DNA of 21,283 nt. It comes from an uncultured Pirellulales bacterium. Lineage in GTDB: Bacteria > Planctomycetota > Phycisphaerae > Sedimentisphaerales > Anaerobacaceae. The notes beneath the pieces are model-generated. The model was given only the letters and a program-made list of their open reading frames with translations, searched no databases and was not told the origin of the DNA. The stretch lies in assembly GCA_964459805.1 (NCBI GenBank), contig CAYWOD010000034.1, forward strand, positions 1-21,283, in the 5' to 3' direction. Below, piece after piece: positions 2,757 to 21,283 of the stretch. The position numbers were made by a program, and so were the translations under genes. Position 1 is the first letter of the stretch, and every line of letters begins with the position of its first letter.

Positions 2757-2792
2757 GTCATTGCGAGGCCCCCTTGGGGCCGTGGCAATCTC
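2757..2792 (+). repeat. REP-like palindromic repeat copy (GTCATTGCGAGG-[GCCCCcttGGGGC hairpin]-CGTGGCAATCTC)
   Basis: It shares the conserved ends GTCATTGCGA / GCAATCTC with copies at 2810-2847, 6591-6626, 20922-20957, 21014-21047 and 21110-21147. The variable core is itself a hairpin. Confidence 0.7.
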
Positions 2793-2809: not shown

Positions 2810-2847
2810 GAGATTGCCGCAGTCGCCTACGGCTCCTTCGCAATGAC
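2810..2847 (-). repeat. REP-like repeat copy, inverted relative to 2757-2792 (GAGATTGCCGCAGTCGC...TTCGCAATGAC)
   Basis: Its reverse complement reads GTCATTGCGAAGGAGCCGTAGGCGACTGCGGCAATCTC. This is near-identical to the copy at 20922-20957. It forms a head-to-head pair with 2757-2792. Confidence 0.7.
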
Positions 2848-4804: not shown

Positions 4805-4969
4805 TTCTGCAAAATTGCAGGTTAGGCCTATATTGTTGAAGAATTGCTTTTTTATGATTTTCTTCAATAATTACCTAACCACTTATGGCACAATACATTG
4901 CTGTTAAAAAGAAAAAATCAAAAAACGATTTTTCTTTTCTAAGTAGGCCTAACCTGTAATTTTGCAGAA
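4805..4969. repeat. 165-bp AT-rich element bounded by 26-bp near-perfect inverted repeats (TTCTGCAAAATTGCAGGTTAGGCCTA ... TAGGCCTAACCTGTAATTTTGCAGAA)
   Basis: The left arm is 4805-4830 and the right arm 4944-4969. They match at 25 of 26 positions as reverse complements. The interior is ~25% GC in a ~58% GC genome. It contains nested hairpins (TTGAAGAA/TTCTTCAA and AAGAAAAAATC/GATTTTTCTT). Each arm carries a CTGCAAnnTTGCAG-type palindrome. Confidence 0.65.
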
Positions 4970-5037: not shown

Positions 5038-6486
5038 ATGGAAAACTTAGGTTTGATTGTCGTAATTGCGGTGGCTTTTATTGGTGTGATTTCCGGTATT
5101 TTCATTTTCGCAGCCAACTATATAAAAGCCGAGCCGCACGAGGCCCTGGTATTTACGGGCAGAAGGCACAAAGCCACGAAAAGAGGATGGGTGGCCGTCG
5201 TCGGCGGCGCCAAGTTCAGGATTCCCGTTTTGGAGATAGTCAACAAGATCTCTCTAAAAACGATGAATCTTCCGGAGGTGCGCGTCGAGGCGGCATATTC
5301 GGCCGAAGGCGTGCCGGTAACTATCGAGGCCGTTGCCAACGTGAAGATCTCCAGCGAGCAGGAAATGCTCGGCAAGGCAGTGGAGCGATTTCTCGGGACT
5401 TCTGATCAACAAATAAAGCAGATTATCAAGGAGACCTTGGAGGGCCAGCTTCGTGATATTATTGGCGTTATGACCGTCGAGCAGCTTTATCAAGAAAGAG
5501 ATATGTTTGTCAATAAGGTGCTTCAGCAGTCGGGCGAAGAGCTGGCGAAGATTGGCGTGATTATTGACATCATCAATATCCAGGACATCCGCGATGAAAG
5601 AGGTTATCTCGAGGCCCTCGGCAGAAAAAGGACCGCTGAGGTAATAAGAGACGCTGAAATCGGCGAGGCCGAGGCAAAAAGAGATGCGATGAAGGAGTCT
5701 GAGACCGCCAGGAGGGAAGGTGAAGTCGTACGGGCCGAGCAGGAGAGACAGATTGCCGAGGCCGAGAAGGGCCGCGATGTTGCAAAGCAGCACTATGTCG
5801 GCGAGACTCTCGCTGCGACGAGAAAGGCCGAGCAGCAAGGGCCACTTTCCGAGGCAAAGGCCAAGCAGGAAGTGGTTGTTGAGCAACAGAAGGTATTAGA
5901 GGAGCAACAAAAGGCGAGAGAGAAAGTCGAGTCCGCCAGGGCCGAAGCCGAAGAACAGAAGTACCGAGCGGACCGAGTGATTCCCGCCGAGGCCGACCGG
6001 CAGGCGGTCATTCTCGAGGCAGAAGGTCAAGCCGCCGCCATTTTCAAGCGGGCCCAAGCACAGGCAAAAGCTATCCAACTCAAACTCGAAGCCGAGGCCG
6101 AAGGCCTTAGAAAGAAAGCGGAGGCCTGGAATACCTACGGAAAGGCGGCCCAGCTTAATCTGGCGCTGGAAGCGATTAAAGAGGTTGCTGGAAAGGGCGC
6201 CGAGGCCCTCGGTGCGATCAAGTTCGATAAGGTCATTGCGATTGACAGCGGCGGCGGCGACGGTGAGACCGCGGTCAACAGGATGCTGACGGCAACGCCT
6301 GCGGGGCTCGTGAAGTTCCTTGAGCAGATAAAGGCCGCCACCGGGATCGACCTGGCGGAGATTCTTAAGAATGTTAATTCTATGGAAGATGAATCTACTG
6401 ACGCATCGCAGATCACAGGCGAAAAAGAGGATGCCAAGGCTAAAGCGGATGCCGGACCCAAATCCAGGAAGGGCGAAAAGGCTTAG
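5038..6486 (+). CDS. Flotillin-like SPFH/band-7 domain protein (YqiK/FloT-like)
   Basis: 482 aa. An N-terminal TM helix (LGLIVVIAVAFIGVISGIFIFAANY) is followed by an SPFH domain. A long Ala/Glu/Lys/Gln-rich coiled coil with flotillin-type EA repeats follows (EAEAKR..., EQERQIAEAEKGR..., AEAEEQKYRADR...). AAAGGGA lies 7 nt before the ATG. Confidence 0.9.
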   Translation: MENLGLIVVIAVAFIGVISGIFIFAANYIKAEPHEALVFTGRRHKATKRGWVAVVGGAKFRIPVLEIVNKISLKTMNLPEVRVEAAYSAEGVPVTIEAVANVKISSEQEMLGKAVERFLGTSDQQIKQIIKETLEGQLRDIIGVMTVEQLYQERDMFVNKVLQQSGEELAKIGVIIDIINIQDIRDERGYLEALGRKRTAEVIRDAEIGEAEAKRDAMKESETARREGEVVRAEQERQIAEAEKGRDVAKQHYVGETLAATRKAEQQGPLSEAKAKQEVVVEQQKVLEEQQKAREKVESARAEAEEQKYRADRVIPAEADRQAVILEAEGQAAAIFKRAQAQAKAIQLKLEAEAEGLRKKAEAWNTYGKAAQLNLALEAIKEVAGKGAEALGAIKFDKVIAIDSGGGDGETAVNRMLTATPAGLVKFLEQIKAATGIDLAEILKNVNSMEDESTDASQITGEKEDAKAKADAGPKSRKGEKA

Positions 6487-6590
6487 CACATCTAACACAA
6501 TAAGCGCGAATGCGTTATAAAGGCAGAGATTGCCCCGTTCGCCTCCGGCGGACTCCTTAGAAAATACCTGGTTCTTGTAGTCTGAGGATT

Positions 6591-6626
6591 GAGATTGCCG
6601 CAGTCGCTGCGCTCTTTCGCGATGAC
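6591..6626 (-). repeat. REP-like repeat copy (GAGATTGCCGCAGTCGCTGCGCTCTTTCGCGATGAC)
   Basis: It belongs to the same family as 2810-2847 and 20922-20957. It lies downstream of the flotillin gene. Confidence 0.65.
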
Positions 6627-6655
6627 ATATTTGGGCTATTTTCTCCTACGTGCAT

Positions 6656-6692
6656 CATGCATCCTGAGAATCCGGTGAGGTGCTCGCAATGA
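6656..6692 (-). repeat. 37-bp repeat (ATGCATCCTGAGAATCCGGTGAGGTGCTCGCAATGAC), inverted copy of 20860-20896
   Basis: Its reverse complement is GTCATTGCGAGCACCTCACCGGATTCTCAGGATGCAT. The copy at 20860-20896 reads GTCATTGCGAACACCTCACCTGATTCTCAGCAGGCAT. The two match at about 33 of 37 positions and share the GTCATTGCGA end. Confidence 0.7.
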
Positions 6693-6984
6693 CATTCTTT
6701 TTGTTAGATGTTTCATAGTGTTTTGCCAAGTATAATACTCGCCGCCGCCAGAGAAGCACGCAAGGCGAAACGCAGAACATCGTGATGAATAACGACTTGA
6801 CAATAATCGAAGAGATGATAACAATGCCGTTGGCCGGTGAAACGCAAGCACGCTCGCATCAGGTGCAACCTGCCAGCGATAGACGGCTGGGTGTGACCGA
6901 TTACCGTATGGGTGGCCGTTTCCAAATCGGCCGCCCACCACACTTTCTCGAAACGGTAATCCAGAACTCCCTTATGCCTAAAAA

Positions 6985-7202: not shown

Positions 7203-8276
7203 ATGAAACTGAAAACAGCCAAACGCTTGATAATCGCCGCCATAATCGCCGTCGTGGTGACCGCCACCATTTCCACCTGGCCGCCGCCCCCACCAGAATA
7301 CGAAATCACTGACCTGGGTTTCTGCGGCACATCAGGGCACGTCAGCGCCATAAACAACGCCGGTCAGGTCGCCGGCTGGTCCCCCTATTACTCCGGCTCT
7401 CCCGCCCGGAACATTGCCTTCGTCTGGGACGCAGTCAATAAAAGAAAGGACATCGAGACGCCCGAAGGAAAACAAAGCTTCGCCAATGACATAAATGACA
7501 AGCCCCAGGTGGCCGGTTACCTCTTAGAACCTCAGACCAAACACACCTCCGCCTTTATTTGGGACGAAGAAAACGGCATAACCGAACTCGACACTCTCGG
7601 CGGAAACTCGAGCAGCGCCACCGCCATCAACAACAAAGGCCAGCTCGTGGGCTTCGCAGAGACTTCGGAGGGTGTAAAGCATGCCTTTATCTGGGACAAG
7701 ACCCGCGGAATGCGAGACCTCGGCACCCTCGGAGGACGCTGGAGTAGGGCCAGCAACATCAATGACAAGGGGCAGGTTGTGGGCATTTCAACGCTTGCGA
7801 ACGGCGACGCTCACGGCTTTATCTGGCAGGAAGATACGGGAATCGTCGATCTGGGCACACTTGGAGGCCAAACCATTTATGCCGCGAGTATCAACAACTC
7901 GCACCAGGTGGTCGGGGCAACTTACAAGAAAGGGCGCACGCATGGTTTCATCTGGGAGACGAACAAGACTATTACAGAACTCAACTTACCCGGCCTGGGA
8001 AGCTTCCCTGTCAAGATTAACGATGCAGGCCAAATCATCGGTTACTTCCAAACGCGAAAATTTCTGTTCTTCAAAGGCCGCCAAACCTGGTTTTTGTGGC
8101 ATTCTGACCGCGGAATTATCGAACTGGATGCCATATCGAAATCGAATGGTGCCCAGTTTAAGCCAGTGGACATAAACAACAGAGGCCAGATCGTTGGAAC
8201 TCAAATCTCCAAAAGCGGTCAAAACCACATTGTCATTTTGACACCCAAACCCGAATCGAAGACGGAAGACGAGTGA
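7203..8276 (+). CDS. HAF-family extracellular repeat protein (N-terminal membrane anchor)
   Basis: 357 aa. An N-terminal TM anchor (LIIAAIIAVVVTATI) is followed by ~7 tandem ~45-aa repeats. Each repeat has INNxGQVVG ... H(A/G)FIWD ... G(M/I)xDLGTLGG. This is the signature of the 'HAF' extracellular repeat family. Confidence 0.85.
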   Translation: MKLKTAKRLIIAAIIAVVVTATISTWPPPPPEYEITDLGFCGTSGHVSAINNAGQVAGWSPYYSGSPARNIAFVWDAVNKRKDIETPEGKQSFANDINDKPQVAGYLLEPQTKHTSAFIWDEENGITELDTLGGNSSSATAINNKGQLVGFAETSEGVKHAFIWDKTRGMRDLGTLGGRWSRASNINDKGQVVGISTLANGDAHGFIWQEDTGIVDLGTLGGQTIYAASINNSHQVVGATYKKGRTHGFIWETNKTITELNLPGLGSFPVKINDAGQIIGYFQTRKFLFFKGRQTWFLWHSDRGIIELDAISKSNGAQFKPVDINNRGQIVGTQISKSGQNHIVILTPKPESKTEDE

Positions 8277-8289
8277 ATGGAGCTGTAGC

Positions 8290-9330
8290 ATGAAGCCAAG
8301 AACGACCAAGAGATTAATAGTAGCTGCGATCATCGGGGCAGTCTTGGCAGTTTTTCTGATTTTCCGTTCTGTTGCCCCGCTGGAATGTGAAGTCACCGAT
8401 CTTGGCTATATTAAAGGGTACGGATGTGCCAACGCTATAAACAATGAAGGGCATGTCGTCGGCTGGACGCAGATAGACGCTCTGGCTACGGCCTTTATTT
8501 GGAGCCCCGAGAAGGGCAGAAGGAGTATCCCGGCCCTTGAAGGAAAAGAAAGCCGGGCCTACGACATAAACGACAAAGGCCAGGTAGTAGGCTATTTCGA
8601 CGAGCTGGATAAGAAAACGCCTGACCGTGCTTTTATCTGGGACGAAGAAACAGGGCTGACCGAACTCGGGACACTCGGCCGCAGTTCACAGGCATTCGCG
8701 GTCAATAACAAAGGACAAGTCGCAGGTGCCTCAATGACTCCCGACGGTCAATGGCACCCTTTCATTTGGGACAAAACAAACGGAATGCGAGACCTTGGAA
8801 CGCTCGGCGGAAAAAGCTACGCCCAGGATATCAACGAAAAGGGACAGGTCGTAGGTATCTCGTACCTCCCAAATGGACAACAACACGCGTTCATCTGGCA
8901 GCAAGGCACCGGGATAGTCGATATCGTAACACCTGGCGGCCCGCCAAGCCGCGCCATGAGTATCAACAATGCAGGCCAAGTGGGTGGGCAAATTGCGAAA
9001 AAGGGGACCGGAAGGGGTTTCATCTGGGAATTAAATACGGGCATGACCGTCCTTGGTATAAAAGGTCAGATACACAGGGGGATGAGGATTAATGATTCAG
9101 GCCAGGCCGTTGGCTACTACTTCACTGACAAACTTCTCTTCTTCAAGGAGCGGCATTCTGTCTTCCTTTGGGATCCGGATCGGGGCGAGGTAGAGTTGAA
9201 TCTGGGGCCGGAGAATGTCAACGATATTTTAGGACTCGATATCAACAACAAAGGCCAAGTCCTCGCGACTTTTCAGGTCACCCGGCAAGAGCACCGCGTG
9301 GTAATCCTGACGCCTAAACCCAAGCAGTAG
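8290..9330 (+). CDS. HAF-family extracellular repeat protein, tandem paralog
   Basis: 346 aa. It has the same architecture and repeat signature (AFIWSPE, AFIWDEETGLTELGTLG, HPFIWDKTNGMRDLGTLGG, HAFIWQQGTGIVD, GFIWELNTGM). GGAG lies 8 nt upstream. It is 13 bp downstream of HAF1 and ends with the shared ILTPKPK tail. Confidence 0.85.
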   Translation: MKPRTTKRLIVAAIIGAVLAVFLIFRSVAPLECEVTDLGYIKGYGCANAINNEGHVVGWTQIDALATAFIWSPEKGRRSIPALEGKESRAYDINDKGQVVGYFDELDKKTPDRAFIWDEETGLTELGTLGRSSQAFAVNNKGQVAGASMTPDGQWHPFIWDKTNGMRDLGTLGGKSYAQDINEKGQVVGISYLPNGQQHAFIWQQGTGIVDIVTPGGPPSRAMSINNAGQVGGQIAKKGTGRGFIWELNTGMTVLGIKGQIHRGMRINDSGQAVGYYFTDKLLFFKERHSVFLWDPDRGEVELNLGPENVNDILGLDINNKGQVLATFQVTRQEHRVVILTPKPKQ

Positions 9331-12699: not shown

Positions 12700-13974
12700 T
12701 TATGTTTTACGTGTCGCTTGCCCGGGCCGGTCGTACTGCGGGACCTTCAGCAGCTCGCCTTGTTTCAGGGCCGACTGATGTGCGACTATACCCGGCACTG
12801 TATAAGCGAGAGATTCACATACGTCTATCGCAGGTGAGCGGTTGTGCACCAGGGCATCGATGAATTCATGCGTCAGGAAGGTGTGCGAGCCTTCGTGGCC
12901 GCTGTTGTGCCGCAAAGGCTCGGGCAGCATGTCCGTTTGCCACCAGTGGGGCTGCTTGTAATGCTCGAAGTTCGGTGCCCTGCGGACAAACCCCGCGTCA
13001 TCTTTTTCCATCTGTGCGCCGCTGCGGATGATAACGGGGCCGACGCCGTTGGGATGCGACGCATAGAAGCTCATCTTATCGCCGATCCACTGTGCCCGCT
13101 CACAGCCTCGATGCGCACCCTTCCACCATATATTGACACGAAACGCATTGCCGCGGTCGGTCCTAAACATAGCCGATTCGTTCCAGAACGGGTTCTTGTA
13201 AACGTTATCTTTCAGTATGGAGCTGTCGTCGCCCCAGCCGTGGCACACCACTTCGGTGAGCCGCTCGCCGCTGACGCCGATAAGCTGGCTCGTGCAGTGC
13301 GTCGGATAGTGCATCGGCGCAACGCCGTGACGCCAGGTCCGCTTGCCGTTCCAATAGTAGAGCGATTCCAGGCCGGGGTGCTGATACTCGGCCTCGCAGT
13401 AATACAGGGCCCCGAACTTGCCCTGCCGATAGAATTTCCTCGCCGAGATCGTGGACTGCTGGTAGTACCCGGTCTCGGCCATCATATACGTCAGCCCATA
13501 CTTTTTGACGGTATCGGCCAGCAGCTCGGCCTGGTCGATTGTACCCCACGCCGCCGGGACCGCCGAGATTACGTGCTTGCCGTTTTTCATTGCCTCAACA
13601 GTGTGCTGAACGTGGAGCGGACCGTCGGTGAAAATAGCCACCGCGTCGATATCTTTCGCAAGCACCAGCTCCTCAAGGCTGTTATATGCCTTCTCGCACC
13701 CATAAACCTGCATCAATCGCTTGCGACGGTCCTCGCGAAGGTCGCTAACGGCCACAACAACGCAATCCGGGTGCTCGTGCCACTGAAATGAACACCCGAA
13801 CCCACCGCCCACAACACCTATGCGAACCTTCTTTGGCGCGGTGTTCACTGCAAGCGCCGCCTGCCCCTTGGGGGCCTGCGACACCAGCATCGCCCCGGCC
13901 AGCGCGCCGCCGCTTTTCTTGAGAAACTCACGTCGTGAACAGTCTTTTTCTGATTTCTCTGGAGTTTGTGCCAT
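12700..13974 (-). CDS. Gfo/Idh/MocA-family oxidoreductase (Tat-secreted)
   Basis: The track ORF extends to 14127, but those extra 51 codons are encoded by a REP-like repeat (..ILRFAQNDN..). I place the start at the ATG at 13974 (MAQTPEKSEKDCSRREFLKKSGGALAGAMLV). GGAAGGAG lies 8 nt upstream and a Tat motif RREFLKK follows. The Rossmann start is VRIGVVGGGFGCS. The Gfo/Idh/MocA core follows. Confidence 0.82.
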   Translation of the reverse strand: MAQTPEKSEKDCSRREFLKKSGGALAGAMLVSQAPKGQAALAVNTAPKKVRIGVVGGGFGCSFQWHEHPDCVVVAVSDLREDRRKRLMQVYGCEKAYNSLEELVLAKDIDAVAIFTDGPLHVQHTVEAMKNGKHVISAVPAAWGTIDQAELLADTVKKYGLTYMMAETGYYQQSTISARKFYRQGKFGALYYCEAEYQHPGLESLYYWNGKRTWRHGVAPMHYPTHCTSQLIGVSGERLTEVVCHGWGDDSSILKDNVYKNPFWNESAMFRTDRGNAFRVNIWWKGAHRGCERAQWIGDKMSFYASHPNGVGPVIIRSGAQMEKDDAGFVRRAPNFEHYKQPHWWQTDMLPEPLRHNSGHEGSHTFLTHEFIDALVHNRSPAIDVCESLAYTVPGIVAHQSALKQGELLKVPQYDRPGQATRKT

Positions 13975-14049: not shown

Positions 14050-14117
14050 GTCATTCTGAGCGAAGCGAAGAATCTGGCCTGCGAATCCCGGATACTTCGC
14101 CTCCGGCTCAGCATGAC
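14050..14117. repeat. 68-bp imperfect palindromic REP-like element (GTCATTCTGAGCGAAGCGAAGAATC...GCTCAGCATGAC)
   Basis: The ends GTCATTCTGAGC / GCTCAGCATGAC are near-perfect reverse complements. The internal GCGAAGCGAAGAATC block is related to the GAGCGAAGCGACGAAGCAATC core of the copy at 21014-21047. It lies in the 180-bp spacer between two convergent genes. Confidence 0.6.
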
Positions 14118-16690: not shown

Positions 16691-17671
16691 CTAATCCTCT
16701 GCTGATTTCAGTGCCGCTGGAAGTTCTATTAGGAGCGAATCATCCGTCTCAACTTCCGCAACTCGGCGATTGTATTCTTGAAGGAGACCGGCCAGCTGCG
16801 CGGCGAACTTCGCTGGAGCGAACTCTGCGAGTTCGGACAGATTCTGACCAACAAAAGATTCCAAAGACTCGGCAACAACTTTACTTTGGAGGCTTTCAGT
16901 TTCCAACAATGCGCGTGCTGCTGTGAGTTTGGAATCCACGACCAAAACTACTGCGGACAAACCGTCTTTTACATTTTGAGCACATCGCTTGACATGCCCC
17001 ATGTTTGGCGCTACAGTCACATGGAAGGCTGTGTTCCCAACGTGGTAGTCTCCCGCCCTTCCAGATTGCTCGTCGGCCGCACTGTACGAAGAGTTCCCAA
17101 CTGTAAGGTGAGGGAAGCGGATTGCGAGCTTAGCGCCAACCAGGTGCTGTGCCACGGGGCCTCCCTGGTTGCGCTGCTGTGCCGCAGCCAATATGTCCGC
17201 TATAACGTTGCGTGGCGGTTTGGAGCGATCGAAGGCAAAGCACACTCTTTCGAGGGCGTAGTATGCGTCAAGCGACTCGACAAGAAAACCCTGGAACTCG
17301 TCGAGCAACCGCACACGGTCTGTTTTCGAAAGGGCCGCGAAACCCGCCTGAGACAACGATTCAAGCAGTAATCGAATCGCACGGTTATTTCCTCGGTTGG
17401 TTCTGCCCCCCTCGCTCGGGAACTGGCGCGATTCGCCAAACCGGCGCAATATCTTTCTCAGTGAAGAAAGGTTTAAGCCCGCTATCTGTGCGCCGCCTTC
17501 AGCAAGATGCCCCTCGATGCTCAGTTCACACTTGGTGCGAAGGCGCTCAAGCACGACCAAGGCTGCTGCAACAGCACCTTTGGCGGGTCTTCCTCCGTAG
17601 CGCTTCATTGGCCTAAGGGTGCTATACCAAGATTGAAAGTTCTTTCTTATTTGGGCATCGGCATCAGTCAT
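16691..17671 (-). CDS. Candidate Type II restriction endonuclease (no family assignable from sequence alone)
   Basis: The track ORF is 16691..17776. I prefer the ATG at 17671 (MTDADAQIRKNF...) because it overlaps the MTase stop in an ATGACTGA arrangement, which implies translational coupling. The ~326-aa protein sits between a C5-MTase and vsr. That position is held by the REase in M-R-V systems such as HpaII. A possible D...K catalytic segment reads GDYHVGNTAFHVTVAPNMGHVKR. Confidence 0.5.
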   Translation of the reverse strand: MTDADAQIRKNFQSWYSTLRPMKRYGGRPAKGAVAAALVVLERLRTKCELSIEGHLAEGGAQIAGLNLSSLRKILRRFGESRQFPSEGGRTNRGNNRAIRLLLESLSQAGFAALSKTDRVRLLDEFQGFLVESLDAYYALERVCFAFDRSKPPRNVIADILAAAQQRNQGGPVAQHLVGAKLAIRFPHLTVGNSSYSAADEQSGRAGDYHVGNTAFHVTVAPNMGHVKRCAQNVKDGLSAVVLVVDSKLTAARALLETESLQSKVVAESLESFVGQNLSELAEFAPAKFAAQLAGLLQEYNRRVAEVETDDSLLIELPAALKSAED

Positions 17672-19160
17672 TTTTGGCGTCTCCCAACAAACGTGGCTGG
17701 TTTGCCGCCGCAACCAGCAGATCGAGGTAGTTCTCGGCAATCCAGGTAAGAGCCGGAACGCAGACGGCATCACCAAAACCGAACAGGGCCTGATTCAGCT
17801 TTGCTTTGATGGTGAAATCGTCAGCGCCCATAAGACGCGCGCATTCACGCGGCGTCAGGAGGCGCGCAGCATACGTGCCAAATCCCGCCTTGAACAGTAT
17901 TTGGCGCCCACTGCCGCCTTTTGGGGTGCGTAGACATCCAGCAAGCCCATCAGATCGAAGTTCGGCCATAGAGCGTTTATGCCCTTCTGGTTGGCGGCGG
18001 ACTCTTCGGAAGATCGTCCCGTAGCACCAGTCTTCTTGAGCCATCCAAGCTTTTGCAATCGCCTGGTGGCGAGCGCTCATCTGATTGTAGAGATATTCTC
18101 TTCTTTCCTTTGACCACCATTCGGGGGCACTCTCATCCAAATCGTCGAGGATTTCCGATAGATACAGTCGAGAATAGAGAGGGGGTTCCGGGAGTCCTCG
18201 CAAAGACCACCGGATGTCAGGATGCGACGTTATGAATTCTACGATCGCCGGCGGCCTCGTTCGGCAAGGCACTGCCTCGCCCACATAGCTGGTGCGTTCG
18301 CAATCAAGCATCGAAGCCACCACAAACAATCTGGGACGGCTCTGGGGAACAAACCATTTCGCGTCCAATATCAACGGATCTACGGAATAGCCAAGTTCAT
18401 TCAATTCGAGCATTGCCTGATGAAAATCGTTTCCCCGGTGAGAGGTCAGAAAAGCTGTAACGTTCTCAAGAAGAACCAAGGGCGGCCGACGTTTCCCCAT
18501 CTCTTTGAGTACGCGCACAAAGCCAAAAAAGGATGAAGACTGTCCCCGATTAAGGCCTTTTCTTCCACCGGCTAAAGAGAGGTCTGTGCAGGGAAAGGAT
18601 GCTGTCGCCAGCGTCGCTCCCGGGATTGCCCCAGCGTCAACCTTGTGAATGTCAGAGAGTTCAAAATGTATGTCAGCATCTTGAAAATGCGCGTCATACA
18701 TTTCCCTTTTCTGCGGATCGATATCATTTGCGTACAGCAGTTGCCATCCTCTCTTTTCAAGTCCGAGGCGCACCAAGCCTATTCCTGCGAAGAACTCCAG
18801 GAAAGTCTGGTCAGGTCGCCGGCGCGATGCCTCTTGAATCCCGAGCCTGTACACTCTCTCATTCACGCGCTCAAGAGTCAGAAGGTCCCCCGCTGAGAGG
18901 TTGTGCGAGCGTACAAAATCCTTCACCCAAGCACGTTCCCTGAAAAGCCAGCGCGGCCTCCCCGTACTTCTATCCCTTGGAATATCTGTCCTGACTGGGT
19001 GGGGAAGTCCGTCGGCTACGATCATAACCTGCTTGCCCGATTGAGCTTTTGTTGAGCCCCCGATCGCATCTTTTGGGAAAAACCCTGGTCCACACGGCGC
19101 AATATTGAGATTGCCGTGCTTTTCAGCTGCCGCCGTTAGTTTGATCACGCATGATTCCAT
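17664..19160 (-). CDS. DNA (cytosine-5)-methyltransferase with N-terminal B3/EcoRII-N-like DNA-binding domain
   Basis: The track ORF begins at a TTG at 19316 inside an AT-rich stretch. I prefer the ATG at 19160 (MESCVIKL...) because AAGGAG lies ~11 nt upstream. C5-MTase motifs are present: I FLEFFAGIGL, IV SFPCTDLSLAG, VI LLENV, VIII QSRPR, X GDAVCVP. Residues ~5-115 match the B3 pseudobarrel signature: KLTAAAEKHGNLNI..FFP ... RWLFRERAWVKDFVRSHNLSAGDLLTLER (compare plant RAV1 WRFRYSYW...FVKEKNLRAGDVVSFER). Confidence 0.82.
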   Translation of the reverse strand: MESCVIKLTAAAEKHGNLNIAPCGPGFFPKDAIGGSTKAQSGKQVMIVADGLPHPVRTDIPRDRSTGRPRWLFRERAWVKDFVRSHNLSAGDLLTLERVNERVYRLGIQEASRRRPDQTFLEFFAGIGLVRLGLEKRGWQLLYANDIDPQKREMYDAHFQDADIHFELSDIHKVDAGAIPGATLATASFPCTDLSLAGGRKGLNRGQSSSFFGFVRVLKEMGKRRPPLVLLENVTAFLTSHRGNDFHQAMLELNELGYSVDPLILDAKWFVPQSRPRLFVVASMLDCERTSYVGEAVPCRTRPPAIVEFITSHPDIRWSLRGLPEPPLYSRLYLSEILDDLDESAPEWWSKERREYLYNQMSARHQAIAKAWMAQEDWCYGTIFRRVRRQPEGHKRSMAELRSDGLAGCLRTPKGGSGRQILFKAGFGTYAARLLTPRECARLMGADDFTIKAKLNQALFGFGDAVCVPALTWIAENYLDLLVAAANQPRLLGDAKND

Positions 19161-19459
19161 TTGCAGTAGAACTCCTTTTCGTAAGATGATTATATCACTT
19201 TTTTGGGTAATCCACAAATTTCTTTGAGTTAAAATCTGAAAACAAGAAGATGCCAGTGCAATCACGACAGTGTCGAAACAACAGAAGGGATTTTTTGCTT
19301 GACTTGAGCGGATCAATGGCGAAAATTGGGGTCCGAAGCTCGGCAGCCCCGTAAGGCTGCGTTTATCAGAATAGAAACCGAATTCTTAAACTCTTTGGGT
19401 CCCAAAGTGCGCTGCTGTGCGTTTAGAGGGGCTCTCAAGACAACAAGGGAGATACGACC

Positions 19460-20859: not shown

Positions 20860-21147
20860 GTCATTGCGAACACCTCACCTGATTCTCAGCAGGCATACAG
20901 AGAAGAAAGTAGCCCACGCACGTCATTGCGAAGGAGCGCAGCGACTGCGGCAATCTCAACCCTTACACTGCAAGAACCGGCTATTTTCTTAGGAGGAGCG
21001 AAGCCCGTTTTTTGTCATTGCGAGGAGCGAAGCGACGAAGCAATCTCGAAGTCTGGGATTGCTTCGCTGCGCTCGCAACAGGCTCCGCAATCTCGATTTT
21101 CGAGTGTTTGAGATTGCCACGGCCTTTGAAAAAGGCCTCGCAATGAC
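20860..21147. repeat. Cluster of at least six REP-like repeat copies in alternating orientation
   Basis: Copies: 20860-20896 (37-bp subfamily); 20922-20957 GTCATTGCGAAGGAGCGCAGCGACTGCGGCAATCTC; 21014-21047 GTCATTGCGAGGAGCGAAGCGACGAAGCAATCTC; 21056-21080 inverted partial copy; 21083-21118 GCAATCTCGA...TTGAGATTGC hairpin; 21110-21147 GAGATTGCCACGGCCTTTgaaAAAGGCCTCGCAATGAC. This last one is an inverted copy with its own GGCCTTT/AAAGGCC core hairpin. The cluster generates spurious ORFs 20926..21111(+) and 21015..21197(-). Confidence 0.75.
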
Positions 21148-21283
21148 ACAGAAACGCAATTTATACCCCCTGAACGGTTACAAACGTACTTGATCATCGA
21201 CCCACAACCATTCTCGTGGTAAAAGGCTATGCCTTAATATTAGGTACTCACTCATGATATTGGTAAGGAATAACAACAAAATT

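Follow-up and report, generated by a model that had tools for sequence, protein, structure and literature searches.

What are the short hairpin repeats that recur between the genes of a 21,283-nt stretch of DNA from an uncultured Pirellulales bacterium (contig CAYWOD010000034.1, positions 1 to 21,283; hereafter the window, in which all positions are given unless another locus is named)? An initial annotation had read them as a family resembling REP and BIME elements, and proposed that a REP-associated tyrosine transposase (RAYT) be looked for elsewhere in the genome. Our analysis indicates that they are very probably Ssn-related motifs (SRM), relatives of the NTS/dRS3 hairpin repeats of Neisseria, and that in the window they are arranged as gene-less doublets and as a mosaic similar to the Neisseria intergenic mosaic elements (NIMEs). 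Their sequence type is new, as is the host lineage, but the system to which they belong is a known one, described in 2025. The repeat family, its structure and covariation, its distribution, its bracketing of a small nuclease gene (ssn) and the homology of that gene to an NTS-flanked gonococcal gene were each observed directly in this study.

Direct reading of the window, together with a relaxed finder, revealed eight complete units (a density of 0.38/kb over 21.3 kb), each of them intergenic, and about four fragments. All lie within four intergenic gaps, which were delimited by Pfam-supported open reading frames (ORFs) and by JGI gene calls on an overlapping contig. The family that the initial annotation had reported is real and intergenic, and its tally of at least nine copies in five intergenic sites is replaced by these numbers. 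The sequence GTCATTGCGA, with at most one mismatch, was observed 10 times in the window against 1.5 expected, GCAATCTC 10 times against 1.1 expected, and the whole pattern GTCATTGCGA-N10-30-GCAATCTC five times against 0.00 in 100 shuffles. Half-motif matches at 6232, 15660, 18198 and 19107, which are solitary and intragenic, are most likely due to chance. The units in the window have the form (T)GTCAT-stem-GA-[variable hairpin]-GNR-stem'-ATCTC, and the frame GTC-A-stem ... stem'-T-C was found in 8/8 complete units. The statement that all copies share an ATTGC/GCAAT stem failed for the pair 14050-14117 and for the unit 6591-6626, whose stems are given in Table 1, while the three different inner hairpins that had been quoted are indeed present.

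The same anatomy was found outside the window. In a survey of bacteria limited to one genome per species, which gave at least 120 loci, the consensus unit was (T)GTC-ATTGC-GA-[G...hairpin...C]-GNR-GCAAT-CTC. A unit of this ATTGC class has GTC on its 5' side, then a basal stem that is short and fixed, an internal loop of purines (GA / GNR), a distal hairpin that varies freely and, on its 3' side, C(TC). Among the 169 exact units from these genome loci both boxes were fixed, and a core was almost never common to two units. The cores were 9-39 nt long and the units 26-60 nt, and outside the unit only position -1 was conserved (T in 60% and C in 28%).

Two lines of evidence indicate that the units are structured. 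In a pool of 444 distinct cores from genome, Ssn-selected and viral loci, a perfect stem of at least 4 bp was present in 47%, versus 13% of shuffles, and one of at least 5 bp in 31%, versus 3% of shuffles. The outer stem covaried among subfamilies, with TGC-GCA in 438/503, CGC-GCG in 26/42, TCT-AGA in 18/27, CCT-AGG in 8/15 and TCC-GGA in 7/11. Judged from this covariation and from the enrichment of perfect stems in the cores, the units are predicted to be hairpin-forming inverted repeats, as SRM and NTS, with 20-50 nt, are. The commonest core frame, GGAG-x-loop-x'-CGAC, could prolong the helix via tandem G-A pairs. The strand asymmetry of mismatched pairs in core stems, 16 G-T versus 10 A-C, was uninformative.

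The protein partner of the units emerged from clustering of the ORFs in the genome loci. This placed an ORF of ~96 aa exactly between inward-facing units in Oscillospiraceae (L035), Planctomycetota (L038), Omnitrophota (L090) and Falkowbacteria (L074, in which the ORF is interrupted). The ORF consists of one GIY-YIG domain (PF01541, E 1e-16 to 1e-18). No transposase family was present among the ORF clusters near units in the at least 120 loci, nor did any DDE-type family recur there. An independent view of this association came from 80 metagenome loci chosen by the GIY-YIG protein alone, without regard to the motif. A correctly oriented unit lay within 250 nt upstream of ssn in 57/73 evaluable loci and within 250 nt downstream in 61/78, or 78% in each case, a figure that holds for this Ssn clade only because the 80 loci are close relatives (50-70% identity) of three query proteins first found beside ATTGC units. 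Correctly oriented units occupied both sides of the gene in 47/71 loci. The gap between unit and ssn had its mode at 0-25 nt, the commonest map was >[gene]<, and the background density of units more than 400 nt away from ssn was 0.55 units/kb. Compact modules of unit, ssn and unit were found in 32 of the 80 loci, and were 342-472 bp long (median 381). The nuclease family itself is very large: 7,985 of 8,000 scored candidates matched at E up to 1e-10, and 3,423 clusters (at 50% identity) matched at that threshold. The only PDB relatives found by sequence were the UPF0213 entries 1zg2 and 1ywl.

The connection with Neisseria was reached by a literature search on the CDD family name cd10448. Literature searches on the repeat sequence itself returned primer coincidences or no match, and searches combining GIY-YIG with REP, MITE or RAYT returned nothing relevant. 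In Neisseria the NTS, CGTCATTCCCGCGMAVGCGGGAATCYRG, is an oriented subset of dRS3. The protein that binds and cleaves it is SsnA, which has 94 aa and a single GIY-YIG domain and belongs to family cd10448 (Chenal et al., Nat Commun 2025, PMC11893778). SsnA acts on the NTS solely as single-stranded DNA (ssDNA), and not on the reverse strand, double-stranded DNA or RNA, and it cuts a few nucleotides upstream of the NTS (PMC11893778). The 3 nt preceding the palindrome are most important for cutting and the C directly after it is most important for binding, while the loop can be deleted or extended (PMC11893778). The same authors found ssnA homologues in several phyla flanked by SRM, an ssn gene in 81% of genomes with >200 SRM, and reduced transformation of N. 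meningitidis by NTS-bearing DNA when the Ssn system was present (PMC11893778).

The 96-aa Planctomycetota protein from L038 (5078-5365) matched a GIY-YIG ORF of 94 aa in N. gonorrhoeae at 44% identity (E 2e-26), and this ORF is surrounded by seven canonical NTS within 1.67 kb; the matching record is a chromosome sequence in PLSDB, typed there as a plasmid. In both systems oriented repeats flank a single-domain GIY-YIG gene of ~94 aa, which was assigned here via PF01541 and its gonococcal homology. The units also share with SRM and NTS the oriented GTC and C flanks around a palindrome. When the two halves of the published definition were considered separately, HGTCWY fitted 622/642 ATTGC units and RNCYNB fitted 441/642.

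Three further observations were made on ssn genes. In the Falkowbacteria metagenome-assembled genome (MAG), ssn is split by a palindromic insertion of ~128 nt at 2727-2854 of L074 (CGGCCAGGCGAGGAAAACCAGCGAAATGATTT ... AAATCATTTCGCGCCAGTTTGACGAAGCCTGGCCG). Many cluster representatives of the Ssn clade (proteins P0122-P0270) are 120-170 aa long, with the match beginning at residue 30-75. These long forms are probably start-codon over-extensions through the upstream unit, the same artefact that occurs in the window. A plasmid of Planktothrix agardhii (NZ_LR882964, 18150-19813; L203) carries an ssn homologue between an MmeI-type restriction-modification gene and DISARM drmA, and this homologue is in a defence-gene neighbourhood.

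The units are spread far more widely than one planctomycete lineage. The same 18 flank bases occurred in at least 120 loci of ~20 phylum-level bacterial groups, including Chloroflexota, Planctomycetota, Desulfobacterota, Nitrospirota, Bacteroidota, Bacillota, Patescibacteria, Omnitrophota, Cyanobacteriota, Alpha- and Gammaproteobacteria, Atribacterota and others. Chryseobacterium and Sporomusa were among the genera with matches. The flank bases also occurred in at least 120 viral contigs (IMG/VR; loci L204-L323), at 0.41 units/kb. No ssn gene was found among these unit-bearing viral loci, and only five Ssn-like loci were found in the whole viral collection. The copies beyond the window that the initial annotation had anticipated do exist, and they are not fragments of a larger insertion sequence (IS) or prophage.

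Comparison of the loci revealed how the units are combined. Adjacent units in the bacterial genome loci were head-to-head 22 times and tail-to-tail once. The head-to-head pairing described from the window is likewise real, its units being found mostly in such pairs and in one mosaic cluster. Gene-less doublets of the form GTCATTGCGA...TCGCAATGAC numbered 47, were 74-179 bp long and had 10-nt inverted ends, and the cores of their two arms were mostly unlike each other. Target-site duplications were sought at these 47 doublets and at the 32 unit-ssn-unit modules, and none was found. Single and tandem units were also common in the loci that we fetched.

The cluster at the end of the window has a more elaborate construction (Table 1). 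The segments 20860-21047(+) and 6526-6693(-), which are 84-89% identical, represent a single larger composite present twice. Each includes a composite module of 123-130 nt (20870-20992; 6554-6683), which comprises one full unit together with a stem of 12 bp, GAAGAAAGTAGCC / GGCTATTTTCTT, and which sits at one identical position, after GTCATTGC(GA), in two different units. A locus from a Sedimentisphaerales MAG, L023, matches the end of the window at 97-98% identity, from which we conclude that the window comes from a Sedimentisphaerales-like planctomycete; compared with this locus, the window has an extra 123 nt (20870-20992), placed exactly between GTCATTGC(GA) and the unit core. This difference is evidence that the unit arrays are dynamic. 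An all-against-all search of 320 loci for filled and empty sites gave one further case, L146 versus L145. At 1831-2092 of L146 a 262-nt block, composed of a doublet and a single unit, lies beside ssn and is missing from the near-identical contig L145, and the junction shows a 5-nt overlap. We also noted that tandem partial duplications of the 5' box and first core bases recur (L023 2498-2548, L038 5022-5052, L109 1293-1355 and L203 1036-1100), one example being GTCATTCTGAGTTCTCCTGTGCT in three copies in the Planktothrix plasmid. Such duplications may have been left behind where the box was broken and repaired repeatedly.

Table 1. Complete, split and truncated units and composite modules in the window.
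Feature	Positions	Strand	Remarks
Complete ATTGC-type unit, core GGCCCC-CTT-GGGGCC	2757-2792	+	Left half of the head-to-head doublet 2757-2847
Complete ATTGC-type unit, core CGTAG-GCGA-CTGCG, one T-G pair	2810-2847	-	Right half of the doublet 2757-2847
Split recipient unit	6526-6693	-	5' box 6684-6693; core and 3' box 6526-6553; 130-nt composite module between them
Composite module, directly after GTCATTGC(GA)	6554-6683	-	84-89% identical to 20870-20992
Complete unit within composite module	6591-6626	-	Degenerate 5' box GTCATCGCGA; stem ATCGC/GCAAT with a C-A mismatch
Variant unit, outer stem ATTCT/AGAAT (compensatory), minimal core GCGAAGCGA	14050-14076	+	Left half of the doublet 14050-14117
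Variant unit, outer stem ATGCT/AGTAT (one G-T pair), core GCCGGAGGC	14089-14117	-	Right half of the doublet 14050-14117
5' box of truncated unit; residual core at 20993-21002	20860-20869	+	Both parts contiguous in the related MAG locus L023
123-nt composite module with complete unit 20922-20957(+)	20870-20992	+	GA at both borders; missing from the orthologous L023 site
Complete unit, commonest core type GGAG-C-GAA-G-CGAC-GAA	21014-21047	+	Head-to-head with 21055-21078
Truncated inverted unit lacking terminal TGAC	21055-21078	-	Read directly in the sequence; head-to-head with 21014-21047; long hairpin in fold
Orphan 3' fragment CAGGCTCC-GCAATCTC	21079-21094	+	Faces unit 21110-21147
Complete unit, core GGCCTTT-TTC-AAAGGCC	21110-21147	-	Frame as in 2757-2792, stem different yet complementary

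The assignment of the units to the SRM has to be weighed against several results that count against it. The published SRM search pattern, HGTCWYN(0-2)YYVSBRHN(0-5)WNVSBRGN(0-2)RNCYNB (PMC11893778), gave no match in the window, although canonical NTS matches it, and within 1 kb of ssn it matched at only 2/80 loci of the ATTGC clade. The units escape it because it demands pyrimidines ("YY") where the stem starts and its maximum hairpin length is too small for them. The architecture of the ATTGC class, with its 5-bp fixed stem, purine internal loop and hypervariable distal hairpin, is not covered by the published search definition, so that the case for membership in the SRM is built on the partner gene's homology and the shared flanks. 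We note that the published pattern is a search tool and not a biological definition. A second difficulty is that tblastn at E up to 1 detected no ssn gene in the 21-kb window, and none was detected in the 8-kb loci of two Sedimentisphaerales MAGs. The selection of the 80 test loci through relatives of unit-adjacent proteins, mentioned above, is a further reason for caution. In addition, nearest-neighbour energies calculated for the units as ssDNA were more stable than those of shuffles for only 2/8 window units, namely 2757-2792 (-9.9 kcal/mol, z -2.45) and 21110-21147 (-9.6 kcal/mol, z -3.27). As the thermodynamic stability of individual units is weak, the structural argument rests on covariation. 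The site at which the composite module is inserted lies 3' of GTCATTGC, which is downstream of the published cut position. Lastly, the specificity of Ssn for ATTGC units is assumed, and the published activity of SsnA depended on the stem sequence.

If the units are SRM, the published biochemistry suggests how they might work; we infer that an Ssn enzyme exists and acts on them in this organism. By analogy with the Neisseria and Wolbachia enzymes, the hairpin would form when the GTCAT strand becomes single-stranded, as in transforming or conjugative DNA or in replication or repair intermediates. An Ssn homologue encoded elsewhere in the genome would then recognize the hairpin base and its flanks, and would nick the GTCAT strand a few bases 5' of the GTC. 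Incoming ssDNA would be fragmented near units, and recombination would be locally altered around the genes that they flank. Such effects would account for arrays that are mosaic and polymorphic between relatives. The physiological role of the system outside Neisseria was left open by its discoverers (PMC11893778), and we are less confident of any particular role for the units than of their class.

The main rival explanation is that the units are instead primarily a selfish, IS-like mobile family. In that case the ~380-bp unit-ssn-unit module would be autonomous, the GIY-YIG nuclease would be its mobilizing enzyme, acting on ssDNA hairpins, the window's gene-less doublets would derive from it without autonomy of their own (in the way that REPINs relate to RAYT), and no host function would be necessary. 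Much of our data is compatible with this explanation. The 32 compact modules have inward-facing units and unrelated flanks, the 47 gene-less doublets have ends in matching orientation, presence/absence polymorphisms exist among relatives, and the 18 identical flank bases in ~20 phyla and in viral contigs suggest horizontal spread. The IS-like NTS-ssnA-NTS architecture was also remarked on by the authors of the Neisseria study (PMC11893778). On the other hand, neither doublets nor modules showed target-site duplications or a conserved target beyond the T or C at -1. The arms of a doublet differ in core and nearly every copy has a unique core, which is not expected of faithful copy-out from a master element. 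The units are common in viral contigs, from which ssn is nearly absent, and to our knowledge GIY-YIG nucleases have no strand-transfer activity. Moreover, a host-level effect on transformation has been shown in Neisseria (PMC11893778). We consider a purely selfish origin possible, but doubtful.

A stronger version of this idea seems to us unlikely. It holds that the ATTGC class is a distinct pan-bacterial Ssn lineage, whose ~380-bp module would be the smallest autonomous mobile element known, mobilized by a 95-aa GIY-YIG ssDNase. Its hairpins would be modular, with fixed flanks for recognition by the protein and the distal stem serving as a free slot for insertions, further units included. Such a design would explain why the cores look swappable, how a 123-nt module came to be nested in a unit and why the arrays are mosaic.

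A role at the RNA level, with the units acting as terminators, 3'-end stabilizers or processing sites of flanking transcripts, is much less probable. Its appeal lies in the position of the units, which are found just after the stop codons at 6486 and 20806 or in the gaps between genes, and in the fold of the 311-nt cluster (z -5.5 and -4.6 on its two strands). However, T-runs are absent downstream of the units, and the 25 terminator-like calls in the window all lie clear of them. Units face either way, also within a divergent promoter gap, and Rfam at E up to 1 gave no relevant match, only two weak unrelated matches elsewhere in the window. The flanks GTC and C(TC), which are not palindromic, are the same in different phyla and agree with the determinants of an enzyme that acts on ssDNA and has no RNA binding (PMC11893778). 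For these reasons the terminator and transcript-stabilizer roles offered by the initial annotation find no support, and of the functions that it listed "recombination sites" comes closest. Incidental effects of units on transcripts are possible.

The kinship with REP, BIME or REPIN elements, kept by a RAYT (a Y1 HUH transposase) encoded elsewhere in the genome, fared even worse and is now very remote. The likeness that prompted it is genuine insofar as these are structured, dispersed, intergenic imperfect palindromes in inverted pairs and clusters. REP families are lineage-specific, whereas the flanks of our units are identical across phyla. Every unit has the head GTCAT and not GTAG, the arms of the 47 doublets are not near-identical inverted copies, as their cores mostly differ, and clustering of neighbouring genes gave no transposase family. 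As a control, of limited sensitivity for very distant RAYTs, E. coli RayT was used to start a jackhmmer search of the repeat-bearing loci (14,080 ORFs, 2.04 Mb). It found two Y1-like ORFs, neither of them bracketed by units, versus 84 Ssn ORFs (80 from Ssn-selected loci and only four from motif-selected loci).

The least probable origin, as miniature inverted-repeat transposable elements (MITEs) of a conventional transposon with terminal inverted repeats GTCATTGCGA...TCGCAATGAC, would suit the length and the 10-nt inverted ends of the doublets, but is contradicted by their lack of target-site duplications, by the common single and tandem units, by the absence of a recurring DDE-type transposase family nearby and by the 95-aa nuclease being the sole recurrent cargo between such ends. 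Readings of the units as CRISPR repeats, integron attC sites or hammerhead-like elements were dropped on anatomical grounds, as spacer arrays, R'/R'' boxes and catalytic-core motifs were lacking.

The units also had an impact on gene calls in the window, as the initial annotation had recognized. The peptide RFAQNDN lies in a 51-codon over-extension of the gene at 12700, which JGI calls as 12700-13974; the unit 14089-14117(-) is 76 nt upstream of the true start of this gene. The ORFs 20926..21111 and 21015..21197 exist as they had been described.

Other features of the window were noted in passing. An AT-rich element of ~165 bp at 4805-4969 has 26-nt terminal inverted repeats (TTCTGCAAAATTGCAGGTTAGGCCTA ... 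TAGGCCTAACCTGTAATTTTGCAGAA), and a 90% identical copy with unrelated flanks is present in the Sedimentisphaerales MAG locus L023 at 5138-5320. This is a MITE-like repeat, separate from the units. Two neighbouring genes at 7203-9330 are made of 129-135-nt (~44-aa) repeats with Pfam DUF3466 matches. On the minus strand, 16691-19316 encodes a DUF4928 protein beside a C-5 cytosine DNA methylase, which likely form a restriction-modification pair.

These data turn an anonymous "REP-like" repeat of an uncultured planctomycete into a testable annotation, that of a candidate binding and cleavage site of an ssDNA-specific nuclease. They explain recurring bad gene calls, which take the form of ...RFA(P)RND..., ...SLRSQ and ...LLAMT peptides and of over-long starts. 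They also suggest that the published SRM pattern overlooks a very large class, found in ~20 phyla and in viral contigs, with a partner protein of 3,423 clusters. Because 18 of its flank bases are fixed while the distal hairpin is arbitrary, the ATTGC class would be a natural counterpart of the "programmable" split and extended hairpins engineered by the Ssn authors. ATTGC units and Ssn are good candidates for a substrate-enzyme pair, both for ssDNA tools and for studying how these elements spread. The class would gain in interest should it turn out to be a minimal mobile element whose hairpin is modular.

Four known systems come closest to the units. The ends of IS200/IS605 elements and their palindrome-associated derivatives resemble them in having subterminal ssDNA hairpins recognized by a small nuclease, and in lacking target-site duplications. 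In contrast to those elements, there is no TnpA or TnpB here, the ends are symmetric and there is no conserved tetra- or pentanucleotide target. REP, BIME and REPIN elements with RAYT share the intergenic palindromes in inverted doublets and clusters, a partner gene flanked by its own repeats, and recognition of an ssDNA hairpin, but their partner has the HUH fold and not GIY-YIG, and the units differ in having no GTAG head and in flanks conserved across phyla.

In the NIMEs, dRS3 hairpins separate diverse RS elements of 19-214 bp and the arrays vary between strains; they were proposed as recombination substrates and described as Neisseria-specific (PMC1797815). The cluster 20860-21147, with its 123-nt indel relative to L023, is similar in that hairpins alternate with diverse spacers that form their own repeat families. 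It differs in the sequence of the hairpin, and in that the composite spacer module lies inside a unit and not between units.

The closest resemblance is to NTS/SRM and SsnA. In both, an oriented hairpin has (H)GTCAT on the 5' side of a palindrome and ATC(Y) on the 3' side, copies are numerous and intergenic and bracket a ~95-aa single-domain GIY-YIG gene, and the loop region tolerates change, as it did when hairpins were split or loops extended in the published experiments. The basal stem is 9 bp (ATTCCCGCG) in NTS and 5 bp (ATTGC) in our units, in which it is followed by an internal loop, GA/GNR, that is conserved and by a distal hairpin that is hypervariable. Here the units nearest to ssn point towards it (>[ssn]<), whereas the nearest NTS point away from it in N. 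gonorrhoeae. The hosts differ as well, those of the ATTGC class being mostly uncultured anaerobes and candidate phyla, and those of NTS/SRM symbionts or pathogens.

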